From an uncultured Clostridia bacterium (GTDB lineage Bacteria; Bacillota; Clostridia; TANB77; CAG-508), in the NCBI GenBank assembly GCA_934130935.1, contig CAKOYQ010000001.1, positions 95,979-159,978 of the forward strand: a stretch of DNA of 64,000 nucleotides. Direction: 5' to 3'. The first letter of the stretch is position 1; each line of letters starts with the position of its first letter. This document shows, piece after piece, positions 9,488 to 40,820 of this stretch. The notes beneath the pieces were generated by a model. That model saw nothing but the letters and a program-made list of their open reading frames with translations. It was not told where the DNA came from and did not search any database. Position numbers and translations under genes: made by a program.

Positions 9488-11809
9488 TTACTTATTCTTC
9501 TTTTTAAAATTTACCACAATAGCATTTTCATTATCAAATTCAAAATTCGCATCTGTATTGTCAATTTGAACAGGATTAAATTCATCTCTTTCGTCTACAA
9601 AATTGATATGTTTTGGATCAAATTTATTTCTTGTTGAGTCTTCTGAATCTTCATCATTTGCAACTCCTGGAGTAAATCTTGAAAAATCATATTTTTTAAC
9701 AGGCTGTTCTTCTTTATATTTAGAAGAAATAAAATTCATTTTTCCTTCACCTATAATAAAATCTCCAGTTTCTGCTTTTAGTTTAACAGCAGCTGACTTA
9801 AATTTTAAAGTTGCTAATTTGTTAGTCGCAAAATAACTTTCCCAATCATATTTTACACTTCCCCATTTTGCGTCATATTCTAATTTATTCATATCCATAC
9901 TATTTGAATAGGTCCATGTTCTTCTCTTTGTAAATTCTCGTGACCACCATTCCAATTCTTCTGGTGTAGATCCTCCCAAGAATATTTTACTAGCACAATT
10001 TGAAAGAATTGTATCTTTATATTTTAGCCTTGGAGAATTACCTTCCAACTGCGCTAAATTCTGTGCTGTAATTGTTGTTCCAACTTTATATTTACGGTAC
10101 AATGTAAACATTGCTTCTGTGTCTTTACATATAAAATCTGGAAATTCGTCTATATACAAGAAGTGCGGAATTCTACTATTCTCATTTCCTGCTCTTCTTA
10201 AAATAGCATTTTGCATTGACAACATAAAAAATAATCCAAATGCTCTATGGCTAGTTCTTCCTAAATCACCTCTACGTGTACAAACTAATGTAACCTCTCC
10301 ATTTTCCAATACTTTATCAAAATCTATATTATTATGCCTATTACATAAAATTGTTTTTACACCTGGTAGTCTTAACAAATTGTCTAATTGTGCTGTAGCT
10401 ATATAAATATATTTTTCTGTTTCCTCTCTTCCTGGACTTCCTGCATAAAAATTCTTTTTAAAATAATTTATTTGTATGCTATATTTTTTAGCAAGCTCAT
10501 CATTTGCCTTCATTATTTCACACATTTTTTCTACTAGGTCAAAATTAGTAAGCATTTTCAATAAATCTTCCAAATTAGGTATATTTCCGTTGTTCATTCT
10601 AGGATACATTTCTTTTAACATAATAGAAATATTTTCTAATGCTTGAATTATAAAATCTTCTCTATATGCTTCCTCTCTTTCCAAATGTGTACTTGCATAC
10701 ATTCCTTTTAATACTGATGAAATTGTTATAGCGATTTTTGATGCATCATCATATATAAATGGGTTTAATCCTATTGAATTCATATTTGATGGATCAATTA
10801 AATTGTATTTAATATGATAATTTTTACAAACATTCATTATTCTTGTTGCAGATTCTATATCTGGCGATATTGATGTTATTCCAAGGTTTCTATATACTAT
10901 ATCACTTCCAAGTGATGATAAAATCATTTTATTCATATATGCCTTATAAACCGCTTCTCTGCCAGTTGCTGGTGTTATCATATTTAAGTTAAAGTTATCA
11001 TTTAAATAATCATTATCATATGGTTTGTTTAATATTGCTATTCCTGTTTTTAATGCTGTATATCCCATTTCTTTTGCATTTGAAATATAAAATGCCTTTT
11101 TTTCTATATCTTTAGCCATCATTGGTTCTAATATTAATGATGTTTTTCCTGTTCCAGAACCTCCACATACTAATAGTGATTGATATCTACTCTTTTCTGC
11201 AAATACCATTTTCTTTCCACTTTCATAATTATTACACATATGTATGTCACATGTAAATGGTCCATGTCCTGCTGCTTTATTTGATAAGTTTATTCCTTTA
11301 TAGTCCCAAATAGATCTTGTTTGATCTTTACTGTCCATGATTCCTAATTTTATCCATTTAAACACACCATAAAATGTAGTTAATGGTAAATATAAAGCTA
11401 ATGCTGTTAATGCTGGTCTTATCAATTCTGAAAAATTTGTTACCAATTCTGTATATCCAGGTAATGATATCAAAAATAACCAAACTATTCTATTTATTCC
11501 TTGTGTAAACATTGAAACTGCAACTATATATAATGTTACAACATATGTAAGGAATAATGTAACCTTCATATTTTTTGATGTTGCAAATTCTGATGGTGGT
11601 GAAAATAAATATGCAAATACTGGACATGCCATTGCAAGTGTATATTGTATTGGTCCCCAATATGATACAGACACTCCTGTAAATATTAAAAATAACATCT
11701 CTACAACTCTATCTACTACTATATACAGTGATATTAATGTTAATATATATGTTGCAAATGTATTTCTACTTGCATTAATTTTCTTTAAAAATTTATCTAT
11801 TATTTTCAT
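9488..11809 (-). CDS. membrane-anchored TraG/TraD/VirD4-family (type IV coupling protein-like) P-loop ATPase
   Basis: 773 aa with about 5 N-terminal TM helices. Walker A is LVCGGSGTGKTS and Walker B is HFLYIDEFPDF. The downstream TITAQNLAQL...ILSNCASKIFLGG matches the T4CP QxxxQL/ilxN motifs. It is not FtsK/SpoIIIE, which would show a different Walker A and a gamma domain. Confidence 0.55.
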   Translation of the reverse strand: MKIIDKFLKKINASRNTFATYILTLISLYIVVDRVVEMLFLIFTGVSVSYWGPIQYTLAMACPVFAYLFSPPSEFATSKNMKVTLFLTYVVTLYIVAVSMFTQGINRIVWLFLISLPGYTELVTNFSELIRPALTALALYLPLTTFYGVFKWIKLGIMDSKDQTRSIWDYKGINLSNKAAGHGPFTCDIHMCNNYESGKKMVFAEKSRYQSLLVCGGSGTGKTSLILEPMMAKDIEKKAFYISNAKEMGYTALKTGIAILNKPYDNDYLNDNFNLNMITPATGREAVYKAYMNKMILSSLGSDIVYRNLGITSISPDIESATRIMNVCKNYHIKYNLIDPSNMNSIGLNPFIYDDASKIAITISSVLKGMYASTHLEREEAYREDFIIQALENISIMLKEMYPRMNNGNIPNLEDLLKMLTNFDLVEKMCEIMKANDELAKKYSIQINYFKKNFYAGSPGREETEKYIYIATAQLDNLLRLPGVKTILCNRHNNIDFDKVLENGEVTLVCTRRGDLGRTSHRAFGLFFMLSMQNAILRRAGNENSRIPHFLYIDEFPDFICKDTEAMFTLYRKYKVGTTITAQNLAQLEGNSPRLKYKDTILSNCASKIFLGGSTPEELEWWSREFTKRRTWTYSNSMDMNKLEYDAKWGSVKYDWESYFATNKLATLKFKSAAVKLKAETGDFIIGEGKMNFISSKYKEEQPVKKYDFSRFTPGVANDEDSEDSTRNKFDPKHINFVDERDEFNPVQIDNTDANFEFDNENAIVVNFKKKNK

Positions 11810-19095: not shown

Positions 19096-20112
19096 TTATT
19101 CTCCGTCATTACTTGTATCATTTAACTTTTTACTAATATATTTCATTACCGAAATGACTTTTGCATAATCCATTCTTTTAGGTCCTATTATTCCAATTGT
19201 TCCCAAATCTTTATTTCCTATTCTATGTTTGAATGTTACTACACTAAAATCTTTTAATTCTTCTTTTTCATTTTCTTCTCCAATATATACATTTATGTCC
19301 TTAGCAAAACCTGTATTTAACATATCAGCCATTAATTCTTTTTCATCTAATATGTTAACAAAATTCTTAGCGACCTCTAGGCTATTAAATTCAGGTAACT
19401 CAAAGAGTCTATTTGTACCTTCTAAATGGATACTCTCTTCTTCAATTACTTTTTTCATCTGCTCAATAATAGGTTTTATTAGATTTACGCTATAACTCAT
19501 TTCTTCAACCAAATATTTTTCTAATGGCTTATCTATTTTACTAATAGGCTCTCCTTTTAACTTATTATTAAACATATAGCTTAACGTTTGTACTTGATTT
19601 TCAGCTATATCTTCATCAAATTTTATAATAGTTTCTTTCACTAGACCTGTATCTGTCAATATTACAGCCATCATCATTCTAGGACTTAGCAAAACGAACT
19701 TTATATTTTCTATTTTTTGAACATCTGAACTAGGTCCTATTGATACTGTAGTATAGTGAGTTATTTCTGAAATTGTACTTGATGTAATTTTCGTCATTTC
19801 TTCTAACTCATTCACTTTTATTTCAAGCTTATCACTAATATATTTAATTTCTTCTAGTGTTATTTTGTCTTCTTGCAATAGTTCATCTACATAGTATCTA
19901 TATCCCTTTGCTGATGGTACTCTTCCTGCTGATGTATGCGGTTTTTCTAAATATCCCATTTTTTCTAGTTCTGCCATCTCATTTCTTATCGTTGCACTAC
20001 TACATTCTAATCCTTCAAAATTCATTATAGCATTTGAACTTACTGGTTCTGCTGTTTGAATATATGACTCAACTATCGCTTGTAATACTCTCTTTTTTCT
20101 TTCATCTAACAT
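19096..20112 (-). CDS. hrcA: heat-inducible transcription repressor HrcA
   Basis: 338 aa. It has an N-terminal winged helix (VSSNAIMNFEGLECSSATIRNEMAELEKMGYLEKPHTSAGRVPS), is the first gene of the dnaK operon, and has CIRCE upstream. Confidence 0.9.
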   Translation of the reverse strand: MLDERKKRVLQAIVESYIQTAEPVSSNAIMNFEGLECSSATIRNEMAELEKMGYLEKPHTSAGRVPSAKGYRYYVDELLQEDKITLEEIKYISDKLEIKVNELEEMTKITSSTISEITHYTTVSIGPSSDVQKIENIKFVLLSPRMMMAVILTDTGLVKETIIKFDEDIAENQVQTLSYMFNNKLKGEPISKIDKPLEKYLVEEMSYSVNLIKPIIEQMKKVIEEESIHLEGTNRLFELPEFNSLEVAKNFVNILDEKELMADMLNTGFAKDINVYIGEENEKEELKDFSVVTFKHRIGNKDLGTIGIIGPKRMDYAKVISVMKYISKKLNDTSNDGE

Positions 20113-20154: not shown

Positions 20155-20181
20155 TTAGCACTCTTTCTATTTGTCTGCTAA
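20155..20181. promoter_or_regulatory. CIRCE operator (HrcA binding site), slightly degenerate
   Basis: Sense-strand ttagcagac-N9-gagtgctaa against the consensus TTAGCACTC-N9-GAGTGCTAA. The right arm is perfect and the left arm has 2 mismatches. It lies between the hrcA -10 and the RBS. Confidence 0.7.
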
Positions 20182-27516: not shown

Positions 27517-29064
27517 CTATTTTGCATAATCAACAACTCTAGTTTCTCTAATAATATTGACTTTTATTTGTCCTGGATAATCCATCTCATCTTCGATTCT
27601 CTTAGACACATCTCTTGCAAGTAAAGTCATTTGATCATCTGAAATTTTTTCTGGTTTTACAATTATTCTTACTTCTCTACCAGCTTGAATTGCAAATGAT
27701 TTTTCAACTCCGTCAAAAGAATCAGCTATAGACTCAAGATTTTCCAATCTTTTTATGTAAGCTTCCAAAGTTTCTCTTCTTGCTCCTGGTCTTGATGCTG
27801 ATATCGCATCAGCAGCTTGTACTAATACAGCTTCTAGCGTTTGTGGTTCAACATCTCCATGGTGTGCCTCTACTGCATTTATTACAAGTTGGTTTTCTTT
27901 AAATTTCTTTAATATATCTACACCAATCTGAACATGAGTTCCCTCCATGTCATGATCTAAGGCTTTACCTATGTCATGTAACAATCCAGCTCTACGTGCA
28001 AGTTTTGGATCTAAGCCAAGCTCTTCTGCCATTATCCTTGCTAAGTTTGAAACTTCTATTGAGTGATTTAATACATTTTGTCCATAACTTGTTCTGTATT
28101 TTAACTTTCCTATTAGTTTTATAAGTTCTGGATTTAAACCAATTACTCCAGTTTCTAATGCTGCTCTTTCTCCCTCTGATTTTATAGTTTCTGACAATTC
28201 TTCTTTAGCCTTTTCTACCATTTCTTCTATTTTGGCTGGATGTATTCTTCCATCATCTATCAACTTCTCAAGGGCAATTCTTGCTACTTCTCTTCTTAAT
28301 GGATCAAAACCTGATAATATCACTGCTTCTGGTGTATCATCTATTATTAAATCTATTCCTGTAAGAGTCTCTAATGCTCTTATATTTCTACCTTCTCTAC
28401 CTATAATTCTTCCTTTAATATCATCTGATGGAAGTGGTACTATTGAAACTGTAGTCTCTGCTGAGTGGTCTGCAGCACATTTTTGAATTGCATAACTTAT
28501 TGTCTCTCTTGCATTCTTCTTTGCTTCCTCTTTAGCTTTTTGCTCTAAATCTTTAATTAATATAGCTTTTTCAGCTGTTATTTCTTGTTCCACTGAACTC
28601 AATAATTGTACTTTTGCCTCTTCTTTAGTTAAGTTCGCAACCTTTTGAAGAACCTCTAATTGCTCATTCTTTAATTCTTCAATATGCTGTTCCTTCTCTT
28701 TTAGTTCACGTTCTCCTTTTTCTAACTCTCTTTCTTTTTTCTCAAAATTGTCTGAACGTTTTTCTAAGTTCTCTTCTTTTTGGATAATTCTACTTTCTTG
28801 TTTTTGTATTTCGCCTCTTCTTTCTTTAATCTCTTGATCTAATTCATTTCTAGCATTCATAATTTCTTCTTTTGCTTTAAAAATTTGTTCTTTTTTTAAA
28901 TTTTCTGCCTCTATTTTCGCTAGGTCTACTAATCTTTGTGCTTCTTTTTCTGCTCCTCCAATTTTAGATTCAGCAATTTTTTTTCTTATTACCATCCCCA
29001 ATGGTATTCCTATTGCTAATGAGATTAAGACAGTGGCTACTATGATTAAAATATCCATAATCAT
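27517..29064 (-). CDS. rny: ribonuclease Y
   Basis: 515 aa with an N-terminal TM and a long K/E-rich coiled coil. It has a KH domain and an HD domain ([18 protein letters not shown]). Confidence 0.9.
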
Positions 29065-39489: not shown

Positions 39490-40146
39490 TTACATTTTTC
39501 TAAATACACCTGCAACTTTTCCCAATATTTGACAATTTGGCACTATTATTGGGTCCATTGTGTGGTTTTCTGGTTGTAAACGTATATAATCTTTTTCCTT
39601 ATAAAATGTCTTAACTGTTGCTTCATCTCCTATTAATGCTACAACTATTTCTCCATTATTTGCATTATTTTGTTTTTTTACAAGAATATAATCTCCATCT
39701 AATATTCCAGCTTCTATCATACTTTCTCCTCTTACTGTCAACATAAAGCTTTCACTGTTTCCAACAAAATCTATTGGAATTGGAAATGTATCTGTTACAT
39801 TCTCCACAGCCAATATTGGTTGTCCTGCTGTTATTTTTCCTATAATCGGAACATCAACTAATTCTTTTTCAGCATAAAAATTTTTATTTGATTTTTTTAT
39901 TGTTTGCCCATTGCTACCTTTTATTACTTTTAAAGTTCTACCCTTTTTTCCTTCTTTTTTTATAAATCCTTGTTTTTCTAACTTAGACAAATATGCATGT
40001 ACTGTAGCTGTTGAACTTAATCCTATTGCTTTTCCAATCTCTCTTACAGATGGTGGATATCCGTTTTCCATAACTTGATCTTCTATAAATTTTAGTATTG
40101 CTTTTTCTTTTCTAGTTGTTTCCGCTCTATTTCCCATTTCTCTCAC
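39490..40146 (-). CDS. lexA: LexA repressor
   Basis: 218 aa. The winged-HTH is [32 protein letters not shown] and the S24 autopeptidase has Ser in GESM and Lys in TVKTFYK. Confidence 0.88.
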
Positions 40147-40160
40147 TTCTCCTTTTCTAA

Positions 40161-40215
40161 TTTGACATCATCATATCATAAGGAAAAAGAAATGTCAAAC
40201 AAATTTTTGACATTT
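40161..40215 (-). promoter_or_regulatory. lexA promoter (TTGACA-17-TATGAT) with a perfect 10-bp inverted repeat AAATGTCAAA-N6-TTTGACATTT over the -35 and a third TTTGACAT half-site at the transcription start
   Basis: Read directly from the sequence. The -35 is at 40193-40198 and the -10 at 40170-40175 on the minus strand. The palindrome spans 40190-40215 and the extra half-site 40161-40168. Confidence 0.5.
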
Positions 40216-40221
40216 CTTTTA

Positions 40222-40698
40222 TTATTTTTTTATTTTTCTTATTTCATATTTAATTACTCCTGCTGGTGCATCAACCTCTACTGTTGCTCCTTTTTTTGCG
40301 CCTAAAAGTGCTCTTCCTATTGGGGATTCATTTGATATCTTATTTTCAGCTAAATTTACTTCAGTAGAACCTACTATAGTATATTCTACTTCCTCATCAA
40401 ATTCAACATCATATAATGTAACAGTATTTCCAATTTGTACTGTTTTTGTATCTATTTCTTTTTCATCTATAATTTTTGCATATCTAACTTTGTTTTCTAA
40501 TTCTGCTATTTTATTTTCATTTTCTGCTTGTGCATTTTTTGCTTCATCATACTCTGAATTTTCAGATAAATCTCCAAATCCTAATGCTACTTTTATTCTT
40601 TCAGCTATTTCAGCTCTTTTTTCTGTTCTTAAATATTCTAATTCTTTTTCTATTTTGTCAAATCCTTCTTGTGTTAATATTACTTCTTTTTCTTCCAT
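40222..40698 (-). CDS. greA: transcription elongation factor GreA
   Basis: It has an N-terminal coiled coil and a C-terminal FKBP-like domain, typical of GreA. The start at 40698 follows GAAAGGAAAG. Confidence 0.9.
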
Positions 40699-40820
40699 AA
40701 TAATCACTTTCCTTTCTCAAGTCAAAACAGTATATACGCATAAAGAGCGACTTTTATAGGTCGCCTTTATAATTAACATCTAGTATGATACTCTACTTTC
40801 TTTATTTTGTCAAGTTTTTT

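Follow-up and report, generated by a model that had tools for sequence, protein, structure and literature searches.

The window, i.e., the whole 64,000-nucleotide stretch of DNA analyzed here, encoded pgsA, greA (40707-40222) and lexA (40137-39490) on its minus strand. The greA coding sequence (40222..40707) matched the GreA profile NF001263 with 196.5 bits (cut-off, 145), and the 215-amino acid product of lexA (39490..40137, with an ATG start at 40137) matched TIGR00498 with 224 bits (cut-off, 111); since both were above the profile cut-offs, the names of the two genes are right. LexA also matched PF01726 and PF00717, corresponding to an N-terminal winged helix-turn-helix and a C-terminal S24 self-cleaving domain, and alignment to solved LexA structures located the Ala-Gly site and the Ser and Lys motifs: ITAG/QP, GESM, and ATVKTF. 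The list of open reading frames placed the start of lexA at a GTG codon (40146). Because the homologs (approximately 215 amino acids) all started at the ATG at 40137 and the GTG frame met a TAA codon in relatives, the greA-lexA spacer was 84 bp, and the 75 bp of the initial annotation was corrected accordingly. The sequence AAGGAG (40149-40154) was located 11 nt before the ATG codon, and this spacing was kept across the clade. On the sense strand, the spacer ran as follows: ...TAA TAAAAGAAATGTCAAA AATTTG TTTGACATTTCTTTT TCCTTATGATATGATGATGTCAAATTAGAAAAGGAGAAGTGAGAGAAATG.

Between positions 27517 and 41468 of the window, the gene order was pgsA-greA-lexA, with no recA beside rny; in many Firmicutes, the order is pgsA-cinA-recA-rny. 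No uvrBA followed the ftsE-ftsX genes, two M23 peptidase genes and ctpA of the window. The genome is small, and recA and uvr must either lie in another part of it or be reduced. The hrcA gene (19096-20112, minus strand) headed an hrcA-grpE-dnaK-dnaJ cluster, and a CIRCE-like repeat, TTAGCACTC-N9-GTCTGCTAA (20155-20181; two mismatches, with none expected by chance), was found upstream of it. An open reading frame of 773 amino acids (9488-11809) showed a weak match (53 bits, below the cut-off) to a VirD4-like coupling protein of the CD1115 family, and may be the remnant of a mobile element.

The promoter assigned to lexA in the initial annotation, TTGACA-17-TATGAT with a dyad overlapping its -35, was confirmed, and agreed with the consensus at 11 of 12 positions. 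It consisted of the -35 hexamer TTGACA (40193..40198, minus strand) and, at a distance of 17 nt, the extended -10 element TG-A-TATGAT (40170..40178, minus strand; TATGAT at 40175-40170 and TG at 40178-40177). The dyad, AAATGTCAAACAAATTTTTGACATTT (40190..40215), was also exactly as first described: a perfect 10+10 bp inverted repeat, AAATGTCAAA-N6-TTTGACATTT, with 0 mismatches. It was unique in the window even when up to three mismatches were allowed (on average, 0.08 such matches in shuffled sequences). The inverted repeat was longer than noted: 15+15 bp, 36 bp in all (40185-40220), with the arms AAAAGAAATGTCAAA and TTTGACATTTCTTTT. The other TTGACA promoters in the window had neither a mirrored arm nor GTT before the -35; the dyad as a general promoter feature was excluded on this ground. 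A search of the region against Rfam gave no meaningful matches. The sites of CtsR, TnrA/GlnR, Spo0A, CRP/FNR and PrfA are not known to fit the spacing and symmetry of the dyad.

A third half-site had been proposed near +1. This copy of ATGTCAAA (40161..40168, minus strand; TTTGACAT) was indeed present in the window but was specific to this species: its closest relatives had other sequences here (ATTTCAGA, ATTTCATA and CTGTTAAA, among others). There were 9 occurrences of the 8-mer TTTGACAT in the window, where about 6 would be expected. As it was not conserved and the 8-mer was common, the half-site was rejected as a part of the operator and is probably incidental.

Hundreds of close homologs of LexA were found in gut metagenomes. 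A genome scan provided a comparison set of uncultured, low-GC Clostridia from the gut (80 species, named, e.g., "Clostridium sp. CAG:440" and "28_12"), in which LexA was 79-91% identical; 81 promoters were available together with that of the window. As in the window, greA preceded lexA in nearly all of the closest species (26 of 28), while the remaining species (about 52) had another upstream gene, often for an M23 peptidase, mostly co-oriented with lexA and 2 to 400 nt away; the upstream gene was co-directional with lexA at 76 of the 81 loci. The -35/-10 arrangement of a sigma-70/sigma-A promoter (spacing of 17 ± 1 nt) was conserved in all 80 relatives. TTGACA itself was unchanged in 80 of the 81 aligned promoters, the exception (L064) being TTGACT, and the -10 was kept as TATGAT or TATTAT.

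The block TCAAAAAT(A/T)TGTTTGACAT was conserved before lexA in the 80 species, including the approximately 50 without greA upstream. When the 81 promoters were anchored on the -35, each position of TCAAAAAT(A/T)TGTTTGACATTT was 80-100% conserved and the flanks were scrambled. Among the 79 distinct lexA promoters, positions 40196-40209 were 90-100% conserved, including the bases that form the loop of the hairpin described below: conservation extended to all six loop bases, and the G of GTTTG, which has no partner in the hairpin, was found in 79 of 79 sequences. Judged from this alignment, the conservation is of the sequence itself and not of pairing alone, since a plain terminator would not need a conserved loop. 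At distances of 4-8 bp from the center of the dyad, the pairs were retained in between 72 and all 79 of the promoters (C-G at 7 bp, 76; T-A at 8 bp, 72). For those at 9 and 10 bp, to which the left arm contributes TG, the numbers were only 52 and 63, respectively; these two left-arm bases were 66-80% conserved even with a distant upstream gene. The pattern of conservation therefore indicated that the element belongs to the lexA promoter, and that constraint is strongest on the central 16 bp and the -35.

In RNA, the 36-bp repeat (40185..40220, minus strand) folded into a hairpin with 15-bp arms and a 6-nt loop (AAUUUG), beginning 2 nt downstream of the stop codon of greA. The free energy was -15.8 kcal/mol (z = -5.7), none of 200 shuffled sequences folded as well, and a terminator scan flagged the hairpin as terminator-like. 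The effective stem was GAAAUGUCAAA/UUUGACAUUUC, followed by the tail UUUUUCCUU after the G-C closing pair; only 3 of the 15 pairs were G-C. Compensatory changes were found in the 28 greA-linked relatives: the pair 14 bp from the center (columns 10/37) was G-C in 14, A-U in 11, U-A in 1 and unpaired in 2, and columns 11/36 were A-U in 25 and G-C in 3. Sixteen double changes were observed against 5.1 ± 2.7 in shuffled alignments, none of 500 shuffles reached the observed score, and all slid controls were lower. Three species had lost one base from each arm (GAATG/CATTC). This covariation was confined to the outer pairs, and the inner pairs were invariant. Because the covarying positions (13-14 bp out) lie beyond a LexA dimer, it is base pairing that is selected there. 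The left arm was perfect in 34 of 40 species with a same-direction gene ending within 35 nt against 16 of 41 others (p = 3e-5, a comparison confounded by phylogeny; p = 0.13 within the distant group alone), and several species with a decayed left arm had a separate terminator upstream. Thus, the region after greA contained a stem-loop following the stop codon, a U-run, and compensatory outer pairs, as in intrinsic terminators, and we infer from structure, position and covariation that this hairpin is the terminator of greA.

What, then, does the invariant center represent? The SOS box of Firmicutes (Cheo box; CGAACRNRYGTTYC for DinR/LexA of B. subtilis) has the consensus GAAC-N4-GTTC, membership usually being granted up to two mismatches. 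As first reported, no GAAC-N4-GTTC was found in the greA-lexA spacer, even with one mismatch. On the other hand, the central 14 bp of the repeat (40196..40209, minus strand; CAAAA-ATTT-GTTTG on the sense strand and CAAACAAATTTTTG on the plus strand) resembled this box in being an imperfect palindrome of 14 bp, in having a 4-bp A/T spacer (AAAT/ATAT-like), and in its location on the promoter of lexA itself. Its center (40202.5) coincided with the symmetry center of the dyad. Compared with CGAAC-N4-GTTCG, the site agreed at 5 of the 8 core positions, or 7 of 10 with the flanking C and G, and a strict consensus search misses it for this reason. The difference was concentrated in the left half, CAAAA instead of CGAAC, in which the outer G and inner C were lost (A in place of G in 76 of the 79 lexA promoters) and the outer A mirrors the T of GTTT. 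The mirror of GTTTG is CAAAC, from which the CAAAA or CAAAT of the lexA sites is one mismatch off; three lexA promoters of relatives read CGAAAAAACGTTTG, with 8 of 10 positions identical to the Cheo consensus. In C. difficile, the operators of lexA and recA, both validated by surface plasmon resonance (SPR; PMC4234289), have the form GAAC-N4-GTTT, and LexA bound the recA site, AGAACAAATGTTTG, in this assay. The right half of this recA site, GTTTG, was identical to that of the window box.

Furthermore, the last TTG of the 14-bp box was also the first three bases of the -35, so that the candidate box overlapped the promoter of a damage-response gene, as would be expected of an operator. This fusion, and the location within the loop and inner stem of a putative terminator hairpin, distinguished it from the usual Cheo box. 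A symmetric weight matrix was constructed from 12 SOS-type boxes of the clade, none of which came from the lexA dyad or overlapped a -35. With this matrix, 40196-40209 (12.55 bits) ranked first of the 127,974 positions on both strands of the window, a test that is partly circular because resemblance to the Cheo box, judged by eye, was the criterion for choosing the training boxes; with the unsymmetrized matrix from the same boxes, it ranked sixth. The LexA protein shared 52% identity with its B. subtilis counterpart. The comparison of recognition helices proposed in the initial annotation revealed a very similar reading helix: STATVHAYL against SSSTVHGHL, with four differences.

Near-canonical boxes, CGAACTTTTGTACG, CGAATAAATGTTTG, GTACAAATGTTCG and GAATAAATGTTC, mostly without TGT...ACA arms, were found at other damage-repair promoters in the clade. 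The clearest case was the TIGR03916/TIGR03915 operon (642 and 238 bits, respectively), encoding a radical SAM protein and a DUF4130 protein, a putative radical-SAM/UDG-like repair pair, and reported to be LexA-regulated in Verrucomicrobia, Alphaproteobacteria and Bacteroidetes (PMC4951493, PMC8565304). Two LexA-type boxes were located before this operon (L033, 1568-2950; L071, 1-120; L081-L095). In every promoter retrieved, box 1 was fused to the -35 in the same register as in lexA: CGAATAAATG-TTTGACT, CAAACAAATA-TTTGACT, GTCAAATAACTG-TTTGACT, or AGTCAAATAACTG-TTTGACT. Box 2 followed an extended -10 and read GTACAAATGTTCG, GTACAAATGTTTG, CAAACTTTAGTTTG or ACACAAATGTTTG. These boxes were more canonical than that of lexA (CGAAT-AAAT-GTTTG and GTAC-AAAT-GTTCG). 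One lineage (L084-86) had AGTCAAA-N6-TTTGACT, in which the base mirrored at 10 bp differed from lexA on both sides. At locus L033, lexA was divergent from the operon, whose promoter consisted of TTGACT-17-TATAAT followed by CGTACAAAAGTTCG, the -35 being the left arm of the lexA dyad.

In about 9 relatives, lexA itself possessed a second, more canonical box in the leader: GAATAAATGTTC/T, GAATAAATGTTT, GAAAAAATGTTTG or GAAAAGTTGTTTG. An insert of 20-50 bases was observed in the leader between the -10 and the ribosome binding site (L010, L012, L013, L016, L025-L028 and L035; approximately 2938-2981). As the window species had no leader box, its lexA would have a single weak predicted operator. 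A KilA-N-like gene of 265 amino acids (assigned by eye, with no NCBIfam match) was found 1.9 kb downstream of lexA in two relatives (L002, 5510-5580; L014, 5510-6373). Its promoter, TTGACA-17-TATAAT, was directly followed by CAAACAAAAGTTCT, and it is likely, from this arrangement, an accessory gene under SOS control. When approximately 0.7 Mb of clade DNA was scanned with the partly circular matrix, all but one (L042) of the intergenic scores of at least 10.5 were located at lexA, the KilA-N-like gene or the repair operon.

Further searches added no members to this set. Among the larger open reading frames of the window compared with NCBIfam, lexA was the only SOS gene; the 10-kb extensions at both ends contained no SOS genes and no intergenic boxes; the KilA-N-like gene was absent from the window, and the TIGR03916/TIGR03915 operon from the window and its extensions. 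tblastn with E. coli RecA as the query detected nothing in the window or the 80 loci. A metagenome scan for TGTCAAA-N6-TTTGACA is uninformative on the regulon: among the matches listed, 79 of 80 loci were unrelated chance matches spread over the whole range of GC contents, and the remaining locus (L129) was a lexA promoter.

These results suggested that the 36-bp repeat probably combines three functions, greA terminator, lexA -35 and central LexA operator, in a three-in-one element arising from the very short greA-lexA spacer. The RNA at the 3' end of greA would fold into the hairpin followed by the U-run and end greA transcription, which would keep lexA free of read-through from a housekeeping gene. 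The 3' arm of the repeat supplies the -35 of a strong promoter of sigma-A type (TTGACA-17-TGnTATGAT), as demonstrated by sequence and conservation. A LexA dimer on CAAAA-ATTT-GTTTG would cover the first half of the -35 (TTG) and the adjoining upstream DNA, and would repress its own gene until RecA stimulated the self-cleavage of LexA. We infer binding to the central 14 bp from similarity, position, the validated operators of Clostridia, and the parallel in a second (repair) operon. The greater apparent length of the palindrome relative to an SOS box would be explained by its flanks, of which the right one must be ACA (from TTGACA) and the left one is kept complementary for the stem. Binding itself seems not to need TGT...ACA, because most of the box 1 sequences in the repair operon, and all of the box 2 and leader boxes, lack mirrored arms.

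The dyad is thus likely the control element of lexA without a textbook GAAC-N4-GTTC, as the initial annotation held. Its two explanations, a new TGTCAAA-type box or another repressor, were not the best readings, since a probable AT-shifted Cheo-type box lies at the center on the same axis. The annotation had also regarded standard boxes, in place of the dyad, at recA and other SOS genes as the observation that would speak against it; this was largely what we found for the repair operon, and not for recA. We propose that the box of this clade has the form AAAC/GAAT-N4-GTTT.

Among the alternatives, it appeared unlikely that the repeat is only a greA terminator and a lexA promoter, with LexA not bound and lexA either not autoregulated or regulated elsewhere. 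Such a reading agrees with the hairpin, the U-run and the covariation, all of which are present, and with the degeneracy of the box (5 of 8 core positions), and the relatives that possess a canonical box carry it in the leader, which the window does not. However, the loop and the unpaired G were as conserved as the stem, and the core was kept where the left arm, and with it the hairpin, was lost, and where the upstream gene was far away or divergent. The same fusion of core and -35 occurred at the promoters of the repair operon, which have their own separate terminators upstream, and no other 14-mer of the window scored higher with the (partly circular) symmetric matrix.

It also seemed quite improbable that the whole dyad is the operator, with LexA in this clade recognizing a longer or displaced palindrome (TGTCAAA-N6-TTTGACA, or TCAAA-N6-TTTGA as a minimum). 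The protein would then have drifted to a relaxed or extended motif, (T)CAAA-N6-TTTG(A) and up to TGTCAAA-N6-TTTGACA, with one palindrome serving as operator, -35 and terminator, which we rate at the same low level. The recognition helix does differ from that of B. subtilis at four positions, the pairs at 7 and 8 bp were kept in 76 and 72 of 79 promoters (52 and 63 at 9 and 10 bp), and the repair operon of L084-86 has AGTCAAA-N6-TTTGACT. Given this form in one lineage and the conservation of the left-arm TG even with a distant upstream gene, LexA may recognize some bases outside the central 14 bp. Nevertheless, most box 1 sequences of that operon, and all of the box 2 and leader boxes and those of the KilA-N-like gene, lacked TGT/ACA arms, yet kept (G/A)AA(C/T)-AAAT-GTT(T/C). 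Furthermore, the right arm is constrained by the -35 in any case, losses in the left arm were uncompensated and were more common where no terminator was needed, and the covariation extended to 14 bp from the center, too far for a LexA dimer.

Control of lexA and, in some species, of the repair operon by another dimeric repressor bound to the dyad is very doubtful. The palindrome does exceed the usual length of an SOS box, while no candidate regulator was linked to the site, the element accompanied lexA in every genomic context, the core resembled validated LexA sites, and its only other occurrences in approximately 0.7 Mb of clade DNA were at a repair operon that is LexA-controlled elsewhere. 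Finally, it is highly improbable that the dyad is, or is a relic of, back-to-back -35 hexamers of divergent promoters with a common operator, an origin rejected as a general account because it holds in L033 only: in L033, the divergent TIGR03916 operon does use the left arm as its -35 (TTGACT-17-TATAAT), and the plus strand of the window contains TTGACA-18-TATTTT, but the upstream gene is co-directional with lexA at 76 of 81 loci, and the antisense promoter of the window has a poor -10 and would be directed into the end of greA (3').

Besides the Cheo box, the three-in-one element is related to two known classes of site. Intrinsic terminators, including those overlapping the next promoter in compact genomes, share with it the stem-loop after a stop codon, the U-run, an upstream A-run and compensatory changes; unlike the usual ones, the stem of the window is very AT-rich, and its inner 8-10 bp are fixed as operator and -35. 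Lineage-specific LexA motifs have been described in Verrucomicrobia (TGTTC-N4-GAACA; PMC4951493) and Bacteroidetes (PMC8565304), where the case was made by comparative genomics of the promoters of lexA and repair genes. The presence of the TIGR03916/TIGR03915 operon in the regulon is common to these phyla and our clade. However, they differ in the half-site or its arrangement and have altered reading helices, whereas GTT(T/C) and the N4 spacing here are those of the ordinary motif of Gram-positive bacteria.

The lexA element of the window, real and strongly conserved, was essentially an ordinary, probably self-regulated promoter in compact form, with a proposed AT-shifted Firmicute SOS box, and the understanding of the SOS response is unchanged. 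A (putative) terminator, a -35 and a (proposed) operator were packed into 36 bp, in which the outer stem alone was free to covary. In very AT-rich genomes, an SOS box can escape a consensus search when its outer G/C are replaced by A/T and it is hidden in a longer palindrome. The regulon suggested by these comparisons would be small: lexA, the TIGR03916/TIGR03915 repair operon, and the KilA-N-like gene. For the annotation of the many genomes of uncultured gut Clostridia, the LexA motif of this clade may be written as (C)(G/A)AA(C/T/A)-AAAT-GTT(T/C)(G).
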